Part shown: one piece after another, positions 8,086 through 24,506 of the stretch
Layout: every line of letters starts with the position of its first letter
Position numbering within the stretch: position 1 is the first letter of the stretch
Assembly (NCBI GenBank): GCA_000998025.1
Contig: LCJG01000015.1
Span: forward strand, 1 to 40,889
DNA: 40,889 nucleotides
Direction of reading: 5' to 3'
DNA from: Candidatus Collierbacteria bacterium GW2011_GWB1_44_6
GTDB taxonomy: Bacteria; Patescibacteriota; Microgenomatia; UBA1400; MFAQ01
Position numbers and translations under genes: made by a program
Notes under the pieces: model-generated
Database searches by the model: none
The model's input: the letters and a program-made list of their open reading frames with translations, nothing else
What the model was told of the DNA's origin: nothing

Positions 8086-9888
8086 ATGTCAAGTCTAATC
8101 AGAAATTTTTCTATCATTGCTCATATTGACGCCGGAAAATCTACGCTGGCGGATCGACTTATGGAAATTACCGGTGCGGTAAAGGGCGATAAAATGACCC
8201 CGCAATTGTTGGATAGTAATCCGATTGAGAGAGAACGGGGTATCACCATAAAACTTGCCCCCGTATCAATGACCTATCATGGCTACAGCTTAAACCTAAT
8301 TGACACTCCTGGCCACGTCGATTTCAACTACGAAGTTGAGCGAGCCCTCCAGGCCTGCGAAGGTGCCATATTATTAGTGGATGCCACTAAGGGAGTTCAG
8401 GCGCAAACGGTCGCCAATCTCCGCTTGGCAAAAAACCTTGGTCTGACCATCATTCCTGTGATCAACAAAATTGATGCTCCTTTGGCCGACGTCCCCGCCG
8501 CCACCCGCCAAATAAAACTTCTACTTGGATTACAGAGTGACCCTCTTTTTGTCTCCGCCAAAACAGGGGAGGGCGTCGAAAACTTATTGGAAAAAATTAT
8601 TTCTGACCTCCCCTCTCCAAAAACATCTGTCATCCCGAGCGTAGTCGAGGGATCCCACTCCACCGCACCATTTCAAGCCCTCGTCTTCAACTCCACCTTT
8701 GATACTCACCTGGGAGTCATTGCTTTTGTCAAAATAATCACCGGAAATTTAAATGCTGGTGACAAACTATCCTTCTTAAGTTCCGGCCAGTCTCTAACTT
8801 CTCAGGAAATAGGCATTTTTTCTCCAGGCAGAACAGAGAAAAAAATACTCACCTCTGGTAGTGTCGGATATATCATTACCGGGCTGAAGGACATCCGTAA
8901 TGTGCTCGTCGGAGATACCTTGTGTCTTTCCCATCAAGTCAAGCTGGTTTCCCCAATTCCTGGCTTTCGGAAAATTCACCCTAATGTCTTTCTGGATTTC
9001 TATCCCGCCGAAGGTTCTCAGTATAGAGACTTGCTCGATGCTCTGGAGAAATTGAAACTAAACGACTCATCTCTTACCACTCAAGGAATAAACTCTCCCA
9101 TTTTGGGGCAAGGGGTCAAGGTTGGCTTTCTGGGTATGCTTCACTCCGAGGTGGTCGGTGAAAGACTTGAGAGAGAATTTAATCTTCCGGTTATTTCCGT
9201 TTCTCCTTCAGTTGAATATAAGGTAGCAGTTCGCTCCGGTGATGAAAAAATATTTAGTTCACCAGCCGATTTTCCCGATCCTGCCACAATAGTCCAAGGC
9301 TACGAACCTATGGCGGCAGTCAATATCGTCGTTACTTCTCCTTACGTGGGCGCTGTCATGGAACTCTGCCAGGATCTTCGTGGCAATTTAGTTAACGTTT
9401 CCTATCTAGACCAGTTGGTAGAAATCGATTATTTTTTGCCTCTAATTGAAGTCATTACCGCACTTCACGACAGTCTCAAAAGCGTTTCACAGGGTTTTGC
9501 GTCCATGGACTACGAATTAGCCGGTTGGCAAGAAGCGGAGCTCGTTAAGCTCGACGTTTTACTCAATCACGAGCTCTTTGCACCCATGAGTGTCATTACG
9601 GTTAGAGAAAAAGCCTACCAAAAAGGTAAAAAGGTAGCCGAGAAGTTAAAAGAAGCTATACCTAGGCAACAATTCGAAATTCCTATTCAGGTTGCCATCG
9701 GCGGCCAGATCGTGGCCCGCGAAACCATCAAGGCCTACCGCAAAGATGTTGATGCCAAGCTTCATGGGGGAGACTTTACCCGGAATCTAAAACTCCTCAA
9801 TAAGCAGAAAAAAGGCAAAGCCCGCATGAAGCAGTTCGGCAAAGTCAGCGTGCCCCAGGAAGCCTTCCTGGCCATCGCCAAATCCTAG
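8086..9888 (+). CDS. lepA: Elongation factor 4 (LepA)
   Basis: IRNFSIIAHIDAGKSTLADR, ERERGITIK, DTPGHVDF, NKID, GFLGMLH, C-terminal KQKKGKARMKQFG. Confidence 0.97.
   Translation: MSSLIRNFSIIAHIDAGKSTLADRLMEITGAVKGDKMTPQLLDSNPIERERGITIKLAPVSMTYHGYSLNLIDTPGHVDFNYEVERALQACEGAILLVDATKGVQAQTVANLRLAKNLGLTIIPVINKIDAPLADVPAATRQIKLLLGLQSDPLFVSAKTGEGVENLLEKIISDLPSPKTSVIPSVVEGSHSTAPFQALVFNSTFDTHLGVIAFVKIITGNLNAGDKLSFLSSGQSLTSQEIGIFSPGRTEKKILTSGSVGYIITGLKDIRNVLVGDTLCLSHQVKLVSPIPGFRKIHPNVFLDFYPAEGSQYRDLLDALEKLKLNDSSLTTQGINSPILGQGVKVGFLGMLHSEVVGERLEREFNLPVISVSPSVEYKVAVRSGDEKIFSSPADFPDPATIVQGYEPMAAVNIVVTSPYVGAVMELCQDLRGNLVNVSYLDQLVEIDYFLPLIEVITALHDSLKSVSQGFASMDYELAGWQEAELVKLDVLLNHELFAPMSVITVREKAYQKGKKVAEKLKEAIPRQQFEIPIQVAIGGQIVARETIKAYRKDVDAKLHGGDFTRNLKLLNKQKKGKARMKQFGKVSVPQEAFLAIAKS
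8629..8654. repeat. Palindromic repeat GTCATCCCGAGCGTAGTCGAGGGATC in frame in lepA (VIPSVVEGS)
   Basis: 26/26 identical to 12657-12682; ATCCC/GGGAT stem. Confidence 0.9.
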
Positions 9889-12133: not shown

Positions 12134-12672
12134 AAAAAGATAAAAAATCCAACGTCAATAACCCTGATCGCGTCGAAACAGCTCAGGAGATTCAGCTTAA
12201 TAATCTTTCCAGACTGATTGAGCTTGAAAAACGGTTCGAAGAAAATGAAGAGAAGCTCGCTTCTACAGAAGAAAAATACCTGAGAATACTGGCTGATTAT
12301 CAAAATCAACAGCGCCGCCATAAAGAGCAAGAGTCTCAAATAATCAAGATGGCTTCGGCCTCCCTACTCGAAAAACTTTTATTAAACATGGATTCCTTAC
12401 AACTAGCTCAGTCTCATCTCAAAGATAAGGGGCTGCAGATGGTCATCGAGCAATTTATGGTTGTATTCAAAGAAGAAGGCTTGGCTCTCATCGAGACAGA
12501 TGGTAATGACTTTGACCCAATCACCATGGACTGCACCGAAATAGTCCCGGGGAAAAAAGATCAAGTGGTCGAAACTGTTGCGCCTGGCTACTTTCTCTTT
12601 GACAAGGTTCTCCGACCTGCTAAAGTCAAAGTCGGCTCAGGAATTAATAACACACCGTCATCCCGAGCGTAG
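12127..12672 (+). CDS. grpE: Nucleotide exchange factor GrpE
   Basis: YLRILADYQN, FDP, GY...KVLRPAKVKV; operon context. Confidence 0.93.
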   Translation: MVKKDKKSNVNNPDRVETAQEIQLNNLSRLIELEKRFEENEEKLASTEEKYLRILADYQNQQRRHKEQESQIIKMASASLLEKLLLNMDSLQLAQSHLKDKGLQMVIEQFMVVFKEEGLALIETDGNDFDPITMDCTEIVPGKKDQVVETVAPGYFLFDKVLRPAKVKVGSGINNTPSSRA

Positions 12673-12682
12673 TCGAGGGATC
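12657..12682. repeat. CGTC-tagged palindromic repeat overlapping the grpE stop codon
   Basis: Identical to 8629-8654; supplies the last codons and TAG (12670-72) of grpE. Confidence 0.9.
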
Positions 12683-17839: not shown

Positions 17840-19045
17840 ATGGACACCCAAACTTTATCAGCTAGGACCGAATTCGCCGCCGCTATCAACCAGATTTGTT
17901 CCGAGCGTGGAATCGCTCCGGAAACCGTGCTAAACGCGATCAACAGTGCTTTGGTGGCTTCTTTTAAGAAAGACTACCCCGAACAAGCCCTCAAATTTGA
18001 AGAAGAAGAGTTAATTGTTTCAGCAGACGTGGATTCTGACAACGGTCAGTTCAAGCTATTTGTCGGCAAAGAAGACGCCAAGAAAAAAGATCTCAAAGAA
18101 ATTACCCCTCCTGGATTTGGTCGCATCGCCGCCCAAGCCGCCAAACAAGTCATACTACAAACTATCCGTGAAGCCGAGAGAGACTCCGTCCTCGCCGACT
18201 ATCAGGAGCACATCGGTGAGGTTATGACAGGCATGGTTCAGAGAATGGACGGCCGTAATGTCGTCATAGATTTGGGTCGTGGCCAAGCAGTCATGCCCCC
18301 CGACGAACAGGTTCGCACCGAATATTACCGCTTAAATTCACGTCTTAGTGTCTACCTCAAAGAAATTGCTGAGACAGTTAAGGGAAAACAAATTATCGTT
18401 TCCCGCTCGGATGATCGTCTATTGGCCGGCCTTTTTGAGAGAGAAGTGCCCGAGGTCAGCTCCGGAGCCGTCCTTATCAAGGCCATCGCCCGTGAAGCCG
18501 GTTCACGATCAAAGGTGGCCGTGGAATCTACCCAAGCAGGCGTCGACCCGGTCGGTTCTTGTGTCGGCCAAAAAGGTGTTCGTGTCCAAGCAGTCATCAA
18601 CGAATTGAACAACGAAAAAATCGATATCATTCAGTACTCAGAGGAAAAAGACAAGTTTATAAAGTCAGCTTTAGCACCTGCCGAAGGACTTAATATTTCT
18701 TTCGACAAGCGGTCAGGTGAGACCACGGTCACCGTACCTTCCGATCAGCTTTCTCTGGCCATCGGTCGTGGTGGACAAAACGTCAAGCTCGCCGCTAAAC
18801 TCACGGGAACCAAGATTAGAATCATTTCTGATCAAGCTTCTCCAGAATCAGCCATTGTAGCTACTGGAACTGAAGAATATGAAATCGATCAGCTCAGCCT
18901 AGACACCAAAGCCAGGAACATCTTGGTTGAGTCAGGGCTCACACACATTGAAGATCTCACGGAAGACAAACTGGACACAGTCAAAGGCATTGGGCCCAAG
19001 ACTCTCGAGAAAATCAAAGTTCAGCTTGCCTCATACAAAAGCTAA
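17840..19045 (+). CDS. nusA: Transcription factor NusA with C-terminal HhH extension
   Basis: FGRIAAQAAKQ, S1, AREAGSRSKVAV, DPVGSCVGQKG, LAIGRGGQNVKLA. Confidence 0.96.
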   Translation: MDTQTLSARTEFAAAINQICSERGIAPETVLNAINSALVASFKKDYPEQALKFEEEELIVSADVDSDNGQFKLFVGKEDAKKKDLKEITPPGFGRIAAQAAKQVILQTIREAERDSVLADYQEHIGEVMTGMVQRMDGRNVVIDLGRGQAVMPPDEQVRTEYYRLNSRLSVYLKEIAETVKGKQIIVSRSDDRLLAGLFEREVPEVSSGAVLIKAIAREAGSRSKVAVESTQAGVDPVGSCVGQKGVRVQAVINELNNEKIDIIQYSEEKDKFIKSALAPAEGLNISFDKRSGETTVTVPSDQLSLAIGRGGQNVKLAAKLTGTKIRIISDQASPESAIVATGTEEYEIDQLSLDTKARNILVESGLTHIEDLTEDKLDTVKGIGPKTLEKIKVQLASYKS

Positions 19046-19054
19046 TTAAATCCT

Positions 19055-20485
19055 ATGCCAGATAACACTCTGTCCACGAGACCGCCCGTGGTTACTATTC
19101 TTGGACACGTTGATCACGGGAAAACCTCTCTTCTTGATCGTATTCGTCACGCCGAAGTTGCCGCAGGTGAGATAGGTGGTATTACTCAAGCCATTGGCGC
19201 ATATCAGATAGATTACAAAGGGAAGAAGATTACTTTCATTGACACTCCGGGACATGCGGCTTTTTCGGCCATGCGCCGCCGTGGTGGCCAGGCCGCTGAT
19301 GTTGCTGTTCTTATTGTTGCCGCCGATGATTCCGTCATGCCTCAGACCATAGAGTCCATCGAGCATATCAAGTCTGCAGGAATTCCCTTTGTCATAGCCG
19401 TCAACAAGGTGGACCTTCCTGGAGTAAACCCCGATAGGGTAAAAACCGATCTAGCAAATAACGGGGTCTACGTCGAGGGATATGGAGGTAATGTTCCGCT
19501 GGTCAATATTTCAGCCAAAAGCGGCGCCGGCATCGACGATCTTTTGGAAATTATTCTCCTCTTGGCCGAGCTGGAAGAGCTAAGAGACAACTCTCAAGAC
19601 ATTCCTGCCTCTAATTTAGTTATTGAATCTTTACTACATCCCCAAATAGGTCCTCTTGCCACTCTACTCGTCAAGCAAGGCACCTTCAAAAAAAATGATA
19701 GTTTATATTCCGGAAAGAAAAATATCGGCAAGATCCGTTCCATGATCGATTATCGTGGAAAATCGATATTAGAAGCCGGCCCCTCTACCCCTTTTCAAGT
19801 TATCGGTCTCTCCGATGTTCCTAGTGTCGGAGATATCCTCACGAGTTCTCCGGCTTCTCCCTCTTCTCTTGATAGAGGTAGTTCAGGAAAGGTAGTCAGT
19901 GCTACCGATGTCGAAAAACCCAACATTCTCCTTAAGGCAGACGTTCAAGGATCTTTGGAGGCAATTCTGGGAACCATAAAAGATCAGGCCAATATTATTG
20001 CGTCTTCTGTCGGCAATGTCTCTGACACCGATGTTCAAACAGCTTCTTCTGCTAGCGCCGAAATATTGGGTTTCAACGTCCGCTTGTCGAGCAGTGTCGT
20101 CAAGCTAGCAGAAATTGAAAAGGTAAAATTCACCAATTTCCGGATTATTTACCAACTCTTTGATTATTTAAAGGAGTTGCAAGAGAAAAAAACTGTTGCC
20201 ATGGGACCTAAGATAATTGAATCCGGAACCGCTACTGTTCTAAAAGTCTTCAATTTTGGTGGCACCATCGTGTACGGCTGTCTGGTAACTTCCGGAAAAT
20301 TTAAACTCGGAGACAAAATACAAAATTCCAAAATTGCATCCATTCAACTTGGCAAAGCAAATGTAGATGAAGTAAAAAAAGATCAGGAATTTGGTGTTAC
20401 CTTAGTACCGAATATTGAGCTCAAGCCTGGTGATATAATGACCGCAACGAATATCGAAGCCCTGCCTGCCAGTAAACAGATGTAA
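19055..20485 (+). CDS. infB: Translation initiation factor IF-2, minimal form without the N-terminal domain
   Basis: RPPVVTILGHVDHGKTSLLD, GGITQ, DTPGHAAF, NKVD, LKADVQGSLEA. Confidence 0.96.
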   Translation: MPDNTLSTRPPVVTILGHVDHGKTSLLDRIRHAEVAAGEIGGITQAIGAYQIDYKGKKITFIDTPGHAAFSAMRRRGGQAADVAVLIVAADDSVMPQTIESIEHIKSAGIPFVIAVNKVDLPGVNPDRVKTDLANNGVYVEGYGGNVPLVNISAKSGAGIDDLLEIILLLAELEELRDNSQDIPASNLVIESLLHPQIGPLATLLVKQGTFKKNDSLYSGKKNIGKIRSMIDYRGKSILEAGPSTPFQVIGLSDVPSVGDILTSSPASPSSLDRGSSGKVVSATDVEKPNILLKADVQGSLEAILGTIKDQANIIASSVGNVSDTDVQTASSASAEILGFNVRLSSSVVKLAEIEKVKFTNFRIIYQLFDYLKELQEKKTVAMGPKIIESGTATVLKVFNFGGTIVYGCLVTSGKFKLGDKIQNSKIASIQLGKANVDEVKKDQEFGVTLVPNIELKPGDIMTATNIEALPASKQM

Positions 20486-20487
20486 CT

Positions 20488-21372
20488 ATGGAAGCCCAAA
20501 ATCATTTTGCCCCAATCAAAAAACTCCTCGAGTCTGCCAGTTCATTCATCGTAGTTTTGCCTCCAGATCCTTCCGGAGATTTAGTCGCCGCCGGTCTCAG
20601 CCTCCATCTGGCCTTAGTCGCCTCCGGCAAAAAATCCCAAATTGGTTGCGGCAGTGAAATTCACGTTCCACCATCGCTATTGGGGGCCGGTGAGATCGCC
20701 GACAGTATTGGCGCCAAAAACTTAGTCATCTCTTTTGATTATCACGAAGACGACTTAGAGAAAGTAGATTATGATGTCCGTCCTGACGGCAAGTTTTACC
20801 TCATGATCAAACCGAAGCAGGGAGCTCCCATTCCCGATGTCTCCAATGTGAAATACTCTTATTCCGGTGCTTCAGCCGATTTGGTCATTACGCTTGGTGT
20901 TAACTCTTTCGAAGAGCTAGGCAAAATCTACGCCGACGAAAAATCATTTTTAGATGAAGCCAAAGTCCTAAGTTTGAATATTACCCCCCGCCCTGCCACT
21001 TTTACCCAAAATCTTCTTCATCTCACCTCTATTGCCTTTACGGAATTGGTGGCCAGACTTCTGGAGAACACTGATCTTAAACCCTCTCCGGACGCCGCCA
21101 AAAATCTTTTAACTTCACTCTACGAAGAAACAAAAAGCCTCACGAGCCCGAAGATGACCGCTGATACTTTTTCCGCTATCGCTTTTCTCATGCGCCACGG
21201 AGCCAGATTCCCGAACCAACAAGCCTATATCCCCAGATTTCCTCTCCCGACCGAAGAAAATTTATCCGCCGCAATGAACAAACCTTACGTAATTCCTCCG
21301 TCCAATCTTTCTGATCAAGAGGTTCCCAACGACTGGACCAAGCCAAAAATCTTCCGCGCCACCGACCTGTAG
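20488..21372 (+). CDS. Degenerate DHH-family (NrnA-like) protein
   Basis: DPSGDLVAAGLSL and ADLVITLG resemble DHH motifs I/II, but the DHH triad is replaced (LNITP). Position after infB is typical of nrnA. Confidence 0.6.
   Translation: MEAQNHFAPIKKLLESASSFIVVLPPDPSGDLVAAGLSLHLALVASGKKSQIGCGSEIHVPPSLLGAGEIADSIGAKNLVISFDYHEDDLEKVDYDVRPDGKFYLMIKPKQGAPIPDVSNVKYSYSGASADLVITLGVNSFEELGKIYADEKSFLDEAKVLSLNITPRPATFTQNLLHLTSIAFTELVARLLENTDLKPSPDAAKNLLTSLYEETKSLTSPKMTADTFSAIAFLMRHGARFPNQQAYIPRFPLPTEENLSAAMNKPYVIPPSNLSDQEVPNDWTKPKIFRATDL
21343..21372 (+). repeat. Left direct repeat (3' end of DHH-like gene, PKIFRATDL*)
   Basis: CCA AAA ATC TTC CGC GCC ACC GAC CTG TAG; the 20-bp core 21346-21365 is identical to 21801-21820. 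Confidence 0.9.
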
Positions 21373-21376
21373 TTAC

Positions 21377-21403
21377 AAAAAACCACCCCTCAATTTGGGG
21401 TGG
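21377..21403 (-). terminator. Intrinsic terminator of the cassette gene
   Basis: A6 then CCACCCC-7nt-GGGGTGG, about 10 nt downstream of the minus-strand stop. Confidence 0.8.
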
Positions 21404-21412
21404 CAGTTAGAC

Positions 21413-21739
21413 TTACACAATTTCCGTTATAGCCGGAATTCCGAGCCCTTGTGAGAGGTAATCGTGGAGCTGAGTGACCTTTACCGGCTTAGCCCAACCA
21501 GTAAATTCACACGGAAACTCCCAGACATCCTGCGGCCAGGCCACATCACAGGAGAAAACATTCAGTACAAACAAACTACCTTTTCCGGCCCAGATTCTCA
21601 CGGCCGAAATGCCATCCCCCCGAAGTCCAAAGACGGCACCTTCATGTAATGCCTCGCTTGATACTTCCAACACTCTCCCCGAGCCATCTATCCACACTCT
21701 TACTCTACCCTTATCTTCATGTATGGTAACCTCGAACAT
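21413..21739 (-). CDS. Hypothetical 108-aa beta-rich protein (cassette cargo)
   Basis: GGAGG 5 nt before ATG, TGaTATACT at 21787-21779, downstream terminator. Confidence 0.75.
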   Translation of the reverse strand: MFEVTIHEDKGRVRVWIDGSGRVLEVSSEALHEGAVFGLRGDGISAVRIWAGKGSLFVLNVFSCDVAWPQDVWEFPCEFTGWAKPVKVTQLHDYLSQGLGIPAITEIV

Positions 21740-21797
21740 AACTACCTCCAGCTTATTAGTGAACTGAGAATACCCCAGAGTATATCACACTACATAA

Positions 21798-21827
21798 CCC
21801 AAAATCTTCCGCGCCACCGATTTATAG
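21798..21827 (+). repeat. Right direct repeat (second copy of PKIFRATDL*)
   Basis: CCC AAA ATC TTC CGC GCC ACC GAT TTA TAG; 26/30 identical to the left copy, all differences synonymous. Confidence 0.9.
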
Positions 21828-21857
21828 AACGACTAGCCGAAGGTCGGAACATGCCTG

Positions 21858-21886
21858 TTGGCAAAAACAGATCTTTCTGCTACAAT
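21858..21886 (+). promoter_or_regulatory. rpsO promoter
   Basis: TTGGCA, 17 bp, TGcTACAAT; 10 nt before ATG 21897. Confidence 0.7.
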
Positions 21887-21896
21887 ACCCCTTGAT

Positions 21897-22184
21897 ATGG
21901 CCCTAAAATCAGACACCAAAATAGACATCATTAAGAAATTTGCCGCAAGTCCCAAGGACACCGGCTCGCCACGAGTGCAGATCGCTCTCCTCACCACTCA
22001 GATCGAGGAGCTCACCGGCCACCTCAAGGTCCACAAAAAAGACAATCACTCTCGCCGTGGCCTTCTCAAGATCATCTCCAAGCGCCGCCGTCTTCTCAAC
22101 TACCTTTCCAAATCCAACCCAAAAGACTATTTAGACATTACCAAGTCACTTAAAATTACTAGCCAGTTGCGCTCAGCCGAATAA
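21897..22184 (+). CDS. rpsO: 30S ribosomal protein S15
   Basis: [33 protein letters not shown]. Start reassigned to ATG 21897 because the longer ORF would begin inside the promoter. Confidence 0.96.
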
Positions 22185-22195
22185 GTTGGGTTTAG

Positions 22196-22254
22196 CTTGA
22201 GGAGTAAATAGAGAAAATCTGTTTTTCTTTGGTTCTTTCTGTTTTCTTCTCAAG
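22196..22254 (+). promoter_or_regulatory. Long imperfect hairpin between rpsO and pnp
   Basis: CTTGAGGAG-TAAATAGAGAA pairs with TTCTTTCTGTTT-TCTTCTCAAG. Confidence 0.55.
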
Positions 22255-22292
22255 ACCTGTGGTCGAGCGCGCAATATGAAAGGAAACCGGAT

Positions 22293-24506
22293 ATGACCTA
22301 TCCATCCACCACCATAGTTCTGAGTGGTAAAACAATTACTATCGAGACCGGCCGCTTTGGTGCCCAGGCTTCAGGTTCTGTCACTGTCCGTTGTGGTGAC
22401 ACCATGGTTAACGCCTCAGTCGTGGCCTCCAAAAAAATCAAAGAGGGGATCGACTATTTTCCACTCTCGCTTGATTACCAAGAAAAACTTTACGCCGGAG
22501 GACTAATTAGTTCTAGTCGCTTCATCAAGCGTGAAGGCAGACCAAATGAAAACGAAATTCTAACCGGCCGTGTCATCGACCGTTCCCTGCGCCCGCTTTT
22601 TGATCAAAGAAGCCGCAACGAAGTTCAAATCATGGTTTATCCTCTGTCCATCGATGGTTCAGAAGAACCAGAAATTTTGGCAGTTATCGCCGCTTCGGCT
22701 GCTGTTTCCATTTCTGATTATCCCTGGCTGGGTCCTGTTGGAGCTGTTAGAGTTGGTATGACTCCTGATGGTGAATATCTCGTCAATCCTACGGCCGAAC
22801 AAAAACTTCTTTCTCCTTTGGACCTCGTTGTTTCCGGTCCTAAAGGTGGAATCAGTATGGTTGAAGCCGGAGCCATTGAAGTATCCGAAGAAAAAATGAT
22901 CGGAGCTTTAAAATTCGCTCAAGAAAACACTGATATTATTTGTGAAGCGATCGACAAGTTTGCCAAAGAAAATGGAAAGAAAAAGAGAACTTTAGAATTC
23001 TCGGAAATCAGTCCCGAAGTGGTTAAGCTAGTAAAAGATGAAATCAAAAACATTGACGAAATTCTCGAAAATGAGGCCAAAAAAACTGGCACACAGATGT
23101 CTGAATACACCGCCGCTATCGCCTTGGCTCATCCAGAGATAAATCCTAATCAAATCAATGAAGTGGCCGATGGTATGCTGAGAGAGCTCGCTCGTGCCGG
23201 AATAGTTGATAAAAATATTCGGCCAGATGGTCGCAACATGGAAGAGATTAGGAAAATTAACATTGAGGTAGGCCTACTTCCTCGTACTCATGGTTCCGCT
23301 TTTTTCCAAAGAGGTCTTACACACGTTTTGTCTGTCGTGACTCTCGCGTCTCCCTCCAGAGAACAGTTGATCGATGGGATGAAGGGTGAGTCCACCAAGC
23401 GTTATATGCATCACTACAACATGCCCGGATATGCTTCCGGTGAGGTTAGTCGTCCCGGCACAGGACGCCGAGAAATTGGTCACGGTGCGCTTGCCGAAAG
23501 AGCTATTTTCCCGATGCTGCCATCAACTGATGTTTTTCCTTACACCATTCGTGTCGTTTCCGAAGTTATGTCCAGCAATGGTTCGACTTCTCAGGCTTCA
23601 GTCTGTGGATCTACTCTTTCTTTGATGGACGCCGGTGTTCCTCTCAAGAAGCCGGTCGCCGGAGTGGCTATGGGACTTATCACCGAAGGTGACAAATTCA
23701 TTACCCTCACCGACATCAGTGGTCTTGAGGATCATCTTGGAGATATGGATTTTAAAGTTGCTGGAACAGTTGATGGAATTACCGCTCTTCAAATGGATAT
23801 TAAAGTTACCGGGGTCAATGCAGACATCTTGGTCAAAGCCTTGGAGCAAGCTAGGCGAGGCCGTATGAAGCTTCTTGATATCATGAATGAGACTCTTGCA
23901 GCGCCCCGTCCCAAACTTTCTCAATATGCTCCAAGGATTTCTTCCACCAAAGTTCCACAGTTAAAGATTGGTGAAATTATTGGACCTGGTGGGAAGATGA
24001 TTCGTCAACTACAGGAAGATTTTACTTGTGAAATTGATATTCAAGAAGATGGCACTGTTACAGTTACCGGCAAGGACCAAGCTAAAGTTGACGGAGCTAT
24101 CGCTTACATCGACTCAATGGTCGCCGAAGCGGAAGTTGGCAAAGTTTACGAAGGTACGGTTGTCCGTATTGAGGCTTTTGGCGCTTTCGTCAACATTATT
24201 CCCGGCAAAGATGGTTTGGTGCACGTTAGCCAAGTCCACCCCGAGACCTTCAAGGCCATGAAAAATGGTGACAAAGTCACCGTCCGTTGCTACGAAATCG
24301 ATTCTATGGGTAGAGTAAATCTCACCATGCTTGACGAAGGCGAATCTCCCATCCGGGCAGAGCGTCCCGCCGGTACCGGCTTTGGTGGTGGCGACAGAGG
24401 TGGACGCAGCTTCGGTGGTGGAGGAGATCGCGGCGGAAGACCTGGTGGTCGCTCGGGAGGACCGGGCGGACGCCCCTCCTTCTCCAAGTTCCGCGACACT
24501 CGCTAA
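22293..24506 (+). CDS. pnp: Polyribonucleotide nucleotidyltransferase
   Basis: FIKREGRP, RTHGSAFFQRG, RREIGHG, SNGSTSQASVC, GDMDFKVAG, KH and S1 domains, RGG-rich tail. Confidence 0.97.
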   Translation: MTYPSTTIVLSGKTITIETGRFGAQASGSVTVRCGDTMVNASVVASKKIKEGIDYFPLSLDYQEKLYAGGLISSSRFIKREGRPNENEILTGRVIDRSLRPLFDQRSRNEVQIMVYPLSIDGSEEPEILAVIAASAAVSISDYPWLGPVGAVRVGMTPDGEYLVNPTAEQKLLSPLDLVVSGPKGGISMVEAGAIEVSEEKMIGALKFAQENTDIICEAIDKFAKENGKKKRTLEFSEISPEVVKLVKDEIKNIDEILENEAKKTGTQMSEYTAAIALAHPEINPNQINEVADGMLRELARAGIVDKNIRPDGRNMEEIRKINIEVGLLPRTHGSAFFQRGLTHVLSVVTLASPSREQLIDGMKGESTKRYMHHYNMPGYASGEVSRPGTGRREIGHGALAERAIFPMLPSTDVFPYTIRVVSEVMSSNGSTSQASVCGSTLSLMDAGVPLKKPVAGVAMGLITEGDKFITLTDISGLEDHLGDMDFKVAGTVDGITALQMDIKVTGVNADILVKALEQARRGRMKLLDIMNETLAAPRPKLSQYAPRISSTKVPQLKIGEIIGPGGKMIRQLQEDFTCEIDIQEDGTVTVTGKDQAKVDGAIAYIDSMVAEAEVGKVYEGTVVRIEAFGAFVNIIPGKDGLVHVSQVHPETFKAMKNGDKVTVRCYEIDSMGRVNLTMLDEGESPIRAERPAGTGFGGGDRGGRSFGGGGDRGGRPGGRSGGPGGRPSFSKFRDTR

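Follow-up and report, generated by a model that had tools for sequence, protein, structure and literature searches.

Two synonymous copies of a gene tail flank a one-gene insert in a variable slot of a Candidatus Collierbacteria genome

We analyzed a 40,889-nucleotide stretch (hereafter the window) of contig LCJG01000015.1 from Candidatus Collierbacteria bacterium GW2011_GWB1_44_6, an uncultured groundwater bacterium. Between a conserved DHH-like gene and rpsO it carries a single antisense gene (the cargo), and the last 30 bp of the DHH-like gene are present on both sides of this insert. We read the arrangement, with confidence and doubt in about equal measure, as the one-off scar of host recombination with DNA of a related lineage in a variable slot, a reading that takes in three variants of the transfer. 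The locus is a recombination footprint of an already known type, and nothing here supports an autonomous or trans-mobilized element or a new class of mobile element.

Bacteria of the Candidate Phyla Radiation (CPR) have tiny genomes with few recognizable mobile elements. How they gain accessory genes is a practical question, for which this locus is a clean and well-bounded case: a single gene, equipped with promoter and terminator, in a slot whose content differs from lineage to lineage throughout the family. Such a scar would indicate that at least one flank came from another lineage, the neighboring C-terminus and the rpsO promoter both being preserved. Its value is that of one more data point for surveying CPR genomes systematically for scars of this sort, and it also points to a small protein family, confidently folded in prediction, that carries no annotation.

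The two gene tails and the unit between them

The functional gene end (R1) and its displaced copy (R2) lie 455 bp apart, start to start, and agree at 26 of 30 bases. Both encode PKIFRATDL-stop, and their four differences (CCA/CCC, GAC/GAT, and CTG/TTA) are all synonymous, as the initial annotation had described. They share an exact 20-bp core (21346–21365 in R1, 21801–21820 in R2) with just two occurrences in the 964,574-bp assembly. The 12 bp upstream of each copy agree at 5 of 12 positions, which is the chance level, and the repeat is exactly 30 bp long. By hand arithmetic, a 26/30 match arises by chance with p ∼2e-12 per offset, or ∼3.5e-5 over 1824 open reading frame (ORF) ends × 10 kb.

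The features of the locus are:

17840–19045, plus strand: nusA (ORF list and family search)
19055–20485, plus strand: infB (ORF list and family search)
20488–21372, plus strand: conserved DHH-like gene, an ORF of 294 aa in the window, downstream of infB
21343–21372, plus strand: R1, the functional last nine codons and stop of the DHH-like gene (PKIFRATDL-stop)
21373–21404, minus strand: intrinsic terminator of the cargo gene, an 8-bp stem (hairpin 21404–21382) and then a U-run, abutting the DHH-like stop codon
21413–21739, minus strand: cargo gene, an ORF of 108 aa
21745–21749, minus strand: GGAGG ribosome-binding site of the cargo gene, from sequence reading
21779–21787, minus strand: extended -10-like motif TGATATACT of the cargo gene, a consensus match only
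21795–21797, plus strand: in-frame TAA before R2, from sequence reading
21798–21827, plus strand: R2, the dead displaced copy of the gene tail
21828–21896, plus strand: native-type spacer, containing the rpsO promoter
21858–21886, plus strand: rpsO promoter, TTGGCA, 17 nt, TACAAT with TG (promoter scan)
21897–22184, plus strand: rpsO, ribosomal protein S15 (Pfam Ribosomal_S15, E 2.8e-32; ATG placed by alignment to relatives)
22293–24506, plus strand: pnp (ORF list and family search)

Exactly one antisense unit of promoter motif, GGAGG, 108-aa ORF, and terminator had been reported between the copies, and that description proved accurate in every detail. The terminator follows R1 directly with nothing between (fold -15.5 kcal/mol, z -2.44). 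A promoter scan, which requires a -35 hexamer, gave no site at 21779–21787, and no Rfam family was found within 21200–22300 (best E 0.67). Within the 425 bp between the repeats, the 108-aa gene is the only ORF with homologs and has no family match, and no integrase lies in or beside the insert.

An in-frame TAA stands directly 5' of R2, which therefore belongs to no ORF in this frame. Over the 69 bp 3' of R2, alignment with the spacers of empty congener slots shows 53/61 identical bases with L004 and 47/57 with L005. Because this native-type spacer and the rpsO promoter follow it, R2 together with its downstream sequence looks like the undisturbed original junction.

Misassembly of two strain alleles of the locus had been named in advance as a way in which the structure could prove unreal, and the source is indeed a metagenome-assembled genome of 67 contigs (78% complete) that differs from other assemblies by 126 bp at ∼21239. 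Contigs nevertheless span both repeats: Logan contigs from two samples of a single study, runs X1 and X3 (run X2 shares its sample with X1), show zero differences over 21239–22256, and JGI contigs L036 and L037 are identical to the window across R1, cargo, R2, and spacer, although the Logan and JGI assemblies may share site or data with the window and are not fully independent. Those assemblies work with 31-letter words, and an exact core of just 20 bp is too short to produce a wrong join in them; we consider an artefact extremely improbable. The initial annotation also suggested looking for an excised circle or an empty-site junction; no contig skips the 455 bp and none carries a circle joint among the contigs of four runs (at most three samples, two studies), which drop rare variants and cannot show rare forms.

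The 126 bp that the window lacks correspond to 42 codons of a Ser/Pro/Glu-rich linker and are present in L036, L037, and the X1/X3 Logan contigs. Short motifs that resemble each other, ATT|CTCC... and TAT|TCCTCTCC..., are found at the two ends of the deletion, which reflects either variation within the population or a difference between assemblies.

How the two copies came to differ bears on their origin. Of the 90 single-base changes that R1 could undergo, 22 are synonymous, and the probability that four random differences are all of this kind is 0.0036. Tail divergence among 11 congeners ranges from 1 to 12 differences (median 5), so that the R1/R2 count of 4 falls inside the between-species range. 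These values suggest that one copy is most likely an allele imported from a related lineage, in support of what the initial annotation had proposed.

The insert could instead have arisen in place, a staggered or processed break or a replication-linked process having duplicated the resident 30 bp, with the copies diverging afterwards. With R1 under selection and R2 neutral, the all-synonymous outcome has P about 0.02; the copies are 13% different with every difference synonymous-looking, whereas a neutral R2 of such age should show frame-breaking or non-synonymous changes too. R2 still encodes the peptide perfectly and therefore cannot have drifted long. The repeat is unique in the genome, as in-place duplication would have it, and a published class of footprints offers a precedent considered below; on the whole we judge this origin very unlikely.

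The variable slot and the cargo family

Thirty relatives' loci were compared, in 25 of which the DHH-like gene and rpsO are both present. The slot between them is empty in 11 (gap 22–99 bp, little beyond the rpsO promoter) and filled in 14 (308–1205 bp) by other ORFs, all on the plus strand; the empty sites and different cargo that the initial annotation proposed to look for at this junction are thus both seen. The filled-slot ORFs form at least a dozen mutually unrelated groups, with only five pairs related by blastp at 1e-4. Fic (L015, L016) and SET (L010) domains and Germane membrane proteins (L019, L021) occur among them, and many ORFs are without a family. In contigs of relatives from the same metagenomes, the slot is either empty, as in L024, or taken up by 1337 other letters that separate tail and rpsO. 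The DHH-like/rpsO gap is a hot spot where the family of these Collierbacteria relatives keeps gaining and losing small genes.

A second tail copy was found in none of the 14 filled slots (best ungapped match 14–19/30), and the slots of the 25 relatives hold no integrase-bearing insert. Searched with a degenerate tail pattern, 44 family genomes gave two adjacent copies only in the genome studied here (G000).

The DHH-like gene was detected in 61 of 61 relatives searched, and the relatives' alignment shows the PKIFR motif at its C-terminus to be conserved across the family. The protein (294 aa in the window versus 336 aa in L036 and L037, assemblies of the same population) has no Pfam match; a 13-sequence profile matched the PDB entry 4ls9_A ('DHH family protein', E 4.5e-4) and, at E 0.056, a RecJ-like protein, and the label 'DHH-like' is weakly supported.

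A word-based search with the cargo protein found no match but itself. A full HMMER search (1.84 billion representatives) recovered ten small homologs of 102–116 aa at 30–49% identity, in which W50, W68, P69, G98, G100, and P102 are invariant; P0006, P0012, P0013, and P0016 (942–2972 aa) were dropped because they match short query stretches only, P0006 being a tandem repeat. The family is rare and unnamed but clearly conserved. With the family alignment, the cargo is predicted to fold as an all-beta protein (predicted local distance difference test, pLDDT, 86.6; predicted template modeling score, pTM, 0.80), and the single-sequence fold was useless (pLDDT 47.7).

No match to the cargo was found in Pfam, NCBIfam, PHROGs, or PADLOC, and no Foldseek match of the model in PDB or BFVD reached E ≤ 0.001. 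Ranked by template modeling (TM) score, the top BFVD entry is an uncharacterized Bacillus phage protein (TM 0.58/0.64, E 0.17), and scores in the ESM Atlas reach at most 0.82, the Atlas's own model being poor. A likeness to Rhs proteins was set aside, as the best Z in a wide VIA-align comparison (7.2, to Rhs beta-sheet segments) is within the tool's stated noise range.

The cargo family was not found in 60 relatives searched with the single protein or in 400 other sampled genomes of the phylum searched by profile, and the cargo has no match in 50,697 phage or 72,556 plasmid records. The profile-guided locus search used a 6-sequence alignment. Within the order, the family occurs in 2 of 286 genomes.

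The second of these genomes, G460 (contig L039), is a Candidatus Collierbacteria of another genus, with the gene order infB, DHH-like gene, 93-aa ORF, terminator, antisense cargo homolog, 144 bp, rpsO. The homolog thus sits in the same slot and orientation and has a similar terminator stem, but it lies behind a different gene, the 93-aa ORF, and without a tail duplicate (best 16/30). Identity between the two cargo proteins is 44% by blastp (111 columns) or 49% in the HMMER listing, versus 57% for the DHH-like protein, 69% for IF-2, and 87% for S15. The family may have resided in both genera since early on with many losses, or may have been transferred within the family; homology of cargo and terminator to the same-slot unit of another genus suggests a within-family donor. 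The 93-aa ORF is found in 1 of 44 family genomes, so G460 has no close empty-site comparator. A by-eye guess that this ORF is kin to the 80–85-aa slot genes of L018 and L020 was unsupported by blastp at 1e-4.

A further, distant homolog shares 35% identity with the cargo and is encoded on a contig of 411,618 bp listed as viral in IMG/VR (L038 8001–8312; L097 5001–5312). Its neighborhood consists of small ORFs, 5 of 18 matching PHROG families, with HicB-like, AAA_21, and GmrSD_N proteins among them. At that length the contig is of huge-phage size. We would guess that the cargo is an accessory, possibly phage-related, small beta protein.

Possible routes to the scar

We favor a scenario in which related-lineage DNA recombined into the locus by host machinery, most likely after natural DNA uptake, and we infer the donor, the direction of transfer, and the enzymes of the event along these lines. 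The donor DNA would have comprised the end of a donor DHH-like gene directly followed by the terminator–cargo–promoter unit. Homology within the DHH-like gene would have anchored one side, and at the other end an illegitimate or short-homology joint would have formed 30 bp upstream of the resident stop codon. The donor tail, R1, would then end the gene, and the resident tail, R2, would have been shifted 455 bp downstream together with the native spacer and the rpsO promoter. Selection could account for the survival of the event, the conserved C-terminus and the rpsO promoter both having been kept intact.

Two variants would give the same map. In a mirror version, R2, spacer, and rpsO would have been imported into a cargo-bearing ancestor; in the other, a circularized fragment would have entered by a single crossover, and single crossovers of circular molecules are described as yielding duplications (PMC3240628). 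The G+C content of the insert (0.475 vs 0.47 in the flanks) fits a donor from the same group. Genes for DNA uptake, a ComEC domain and DprA, are present in the genome.

The initial annotation had offered two routes: a minimal cassette moved in trans, and short-homology recombination after DNA uptake. The second, as a proposed route, fits better than the first. Neither a second copy nor a like junction turned up in the genome itself, in the complete congener G002, or among the 44 family genomes, and the contigs of the four runs showed neither a 455-bp skip nor a circle joint. The G460 cargo occupies the same slot repeat-free behind a different gene, which argues against a dedicated attachment function of the gene tail.

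Several points weigh against the favored scenario. RecA was not found in the 78%-complete assembly (it is present in 4 of 4 relatives checked). Neither a donor nor a mosaic boundary nor microhomology is demonstrable: across infB and the DHH-like gene the 12 congeners stand at 65–80% DNA identity throughout, with no informative neighbor, and a mosaic test there is without power. Classical homology-facilitated illegitimate recombination (HFIR) couples insertion with deletion in the cited account (PMC3240628), so the 30-bp remnant must be what the deletion left, which is an assumption. An exact 20-bp core with diverged arms is also what an att crossover would be expected to leave, the synonymy argument is suggestive and rests on four sites, and a single event yields no statistics on junction preference.

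The favored scenario has a described counterpart in the displaced ('orphaned') 3' ends of HFIR type at rhs, contact-dependent inhibition (CDI), and type VI secretion system (T6SS) effector-immunity loci, reported there with a 5' homology anchor, a new 3' end and downstream gene, a resident end that is shifted and dead, and no recombinase gene (PMC5361080). Here too, a resident-type 3' end (R2 with native-type spacer and promoter) is retained downstream of R1 and the cargo. The hosts in that account are naturally transformable (PMC5361080); in this genome the ComEC domain and DprA would be candidate counterparts of that ability. Its orphaned ends are unrelated and encode different toxins (PMC5361080), in contrast to the synonymous alleles of the same ten codons at our locus, which has a remnant of just 30 bp and an antisense cargo other than an immunity gene; there as here, the mechanism is an inference.

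The main rival to host recombination, which we hold to be unlikely, is a decayed integrative element resembling the cis-mobilizable elements (CIMEs) of streptococci. An integrative element or phage encoding a tyrosine integrase would have used the tail as attB and carried a replacement tail in its attP, and an internal deletion would have left one accessory gene, R1 and R2 being attL and attR with the crossover in the 20-bp core. Prophages e14 and phage 21 at Escherichia coli icd integrate inside the 3' end of a protein gene in this manner and bring a replacement end that differs mainly synonymously; unlike the present insert, they are full prophages with their own integrase, and the segment they replace is much longer.

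The map itself agrees with such an element, with attL–cargo–attR at a gene 3' end, a 20-bp exact core with diverged arms, and a restored reading frame. A crossover in the core reconstructs an incoming tail to the genus consensus, with one difference from L005, L009, and L010. The cargo homolog on the IMG/VR viral contig counts in the same direction, as does a third tyrosine recombinase in the congener G002. Moreover, CIMEs of 1.2–13 kb and gene-less microCIMEs of 130–220 bp are documented at the 3' ends of rpmG, rpsI, fda, and rplL in the cited accounts (PMC7563491; PMC6323972).

As described there, CIMEs and microCIMEs are integrase-less remnants of integrative and conjugative or integrative and mobilizable elements (ICEs, IMEs); they lie between direct repeats where a housekeeping gene ends (3' side), lack genes for recombination and transfer, and in some cases carry cargo (PMC7563491; PMC6323972). 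The present locus likewise has flanking 26/30 direct repeats as putative att sites and no integrase, relaxase, or transfer genes. The described CIMEs, however, derive by definition from an ICE or IME whose att sites they share, and they are mobilized once such an element lands next to them (PMC7563491; PMC6323972), whereas for this site neither an element of that kind nor an integrase or a conjugation system was found. No ICE, IME, or phage sharing the site turned up in IMG/VR or in the slots of the 25 relatives, the degenerate whole-tail pattern has 0 matches in IMG/VR, and no parent element is known from these searches.

Other observations against the decayed element are the lack of any cargo match in the phage and plasmid records, the lack of a second tail copy in the 14 filled slots, and the restriction of adjacent copies to G000. 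The repeat-free G460 cargo behind a different gene indicates that the cargo does not depend on this tail for its att site. The inverted-repeat list shows no dyad symmetry or hairpin in the tail copies (fold of 21798–21860, z 0.20), which speaks against dif-like or attC-like sites. Recombinases in the assembly amount to one Xer-like tyrosine recombinase (contig C20) and one large serine recombinase, both off this contig, and no phage-type integrase was found in the 78%-complete assembly.

Two other known systems were rejected. An integron gene cassette does not fit, there being no arm pair within either copy, a fold z of 0.20, and no integrase nearby. For an Xer-dependent module (an integrative mobile element exploiting Xer, IMEX, or a dif-flanked module), R1 and R2 contain no dif-like inverted 11-bp arms around a 6-bp spacer.

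The precedent for in-place duplication is the insertion with long target duplication (ILTD) described for restriction-modification (R-M) units by Furuta, Abe, and Kobayashi in 2010 (PMC2853133). In the cases cited, a unit free of integrase and other mobility genes lies between direct repeats of a target present once where the insert is absent, some repeats overlap gene 3' ends, and the species are mostly naturally competent (PMC2853133). The footprint here fits that class, with a target that is single in the 11 of 25 empty relatives (between-species comparisons), no mobility gene, and a unique repeat. The published repeats, in contrast, exceed 30 bp by definition and are near-identical (e.g. 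44/46 and 417/423), with R-M cargo and within-species comparisons (PMC2853133); the repeat here is exactly 30 bp and 13% diverged, around a small protein cargo. In-place duplication also leaves the homology of cargo and terminator to the same-slot unit of another genus to be reconciled, since a within-family donor would bring its own tail.

A broader idea, distinctly unlikely in our estimation, is that conserved gene tails beside strong promoters in ultra-small CPR bacteria (Patescibacteria) could serve as integrase-free landing pads for single-gene promoter-to-terminator cassettes, with competence uptake and host recombination moving cassettes from a slot in one lineage to the corresponding slot in a related one. 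The incoming tail would act as a homology arm and the displaced tail as a route to precise loss, making the DHH-like/rpsO slot one platform, integron-like without an integrase. The finding that two genera share a cassette family at this slot is compatible with the idea.

Search for further scars, and other recombinases and repeats

The initial annotation proposed looking for other stop-proximal repeats bracketing single genes, and none emerged from a scan of 1824 ORF ends in this genome, which returned five matches of at least 24/30 versus three at random control positions. The four matches other than the present locus (two on C4, one each on C12 and C27) are tandem repeats or tandem paralogs. 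No such scar was found at 2241 ORF ends of the complete congener G002; the 11 matches (8 at controls) are paralogs, hairpins, or a multi-copy repeat.

One G002 match, a 77-bp exact repeat 6.2 kb apart, was considered as a second case and rejected, as it belongs to a multi-copy repeat family of ∼400 nt and is not a gene-tail duplication. Non-coding copies of this family lie on G002 contig C1 at 391139–391600, 397311–397762, 402413–402515, and 438646–439142, and in G000 on contigs C32 (8703–9033), C40, C8, and C60, with 74–82% identity between the congeners. The family has no Rfam match and is not a tRNA. Two of its copies in G002, those with the 77-bp exact stretch, flank a 6.1-kb glycosyltransferase segment with a G+C content of 0.373 vs 0.45. 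Around the third tyrosine recombinase of G002, none of the att-like repeats was convincing.

The large serine recombinase (555 aa, contig C17 23970–25637, L034 1438–3105) is XisF/Ccr-like by NCBIfam below cut-offs and is the only non-Xer recombinase found in the assembly. Large serine recombinases are not known to leave long direct repeats.

Elsewhere in the window, the rpsO–pnp spacer (22184–22294) measures 109 bp versus 6 letters in same-sample contigs of relatives, a length difference by which this spacer is likewise variable between lineages. A 26-bp exact direct repeat with palindromic GC-rich arms occurs at 8629–8654 and 12657–12682, 4 kb apart.

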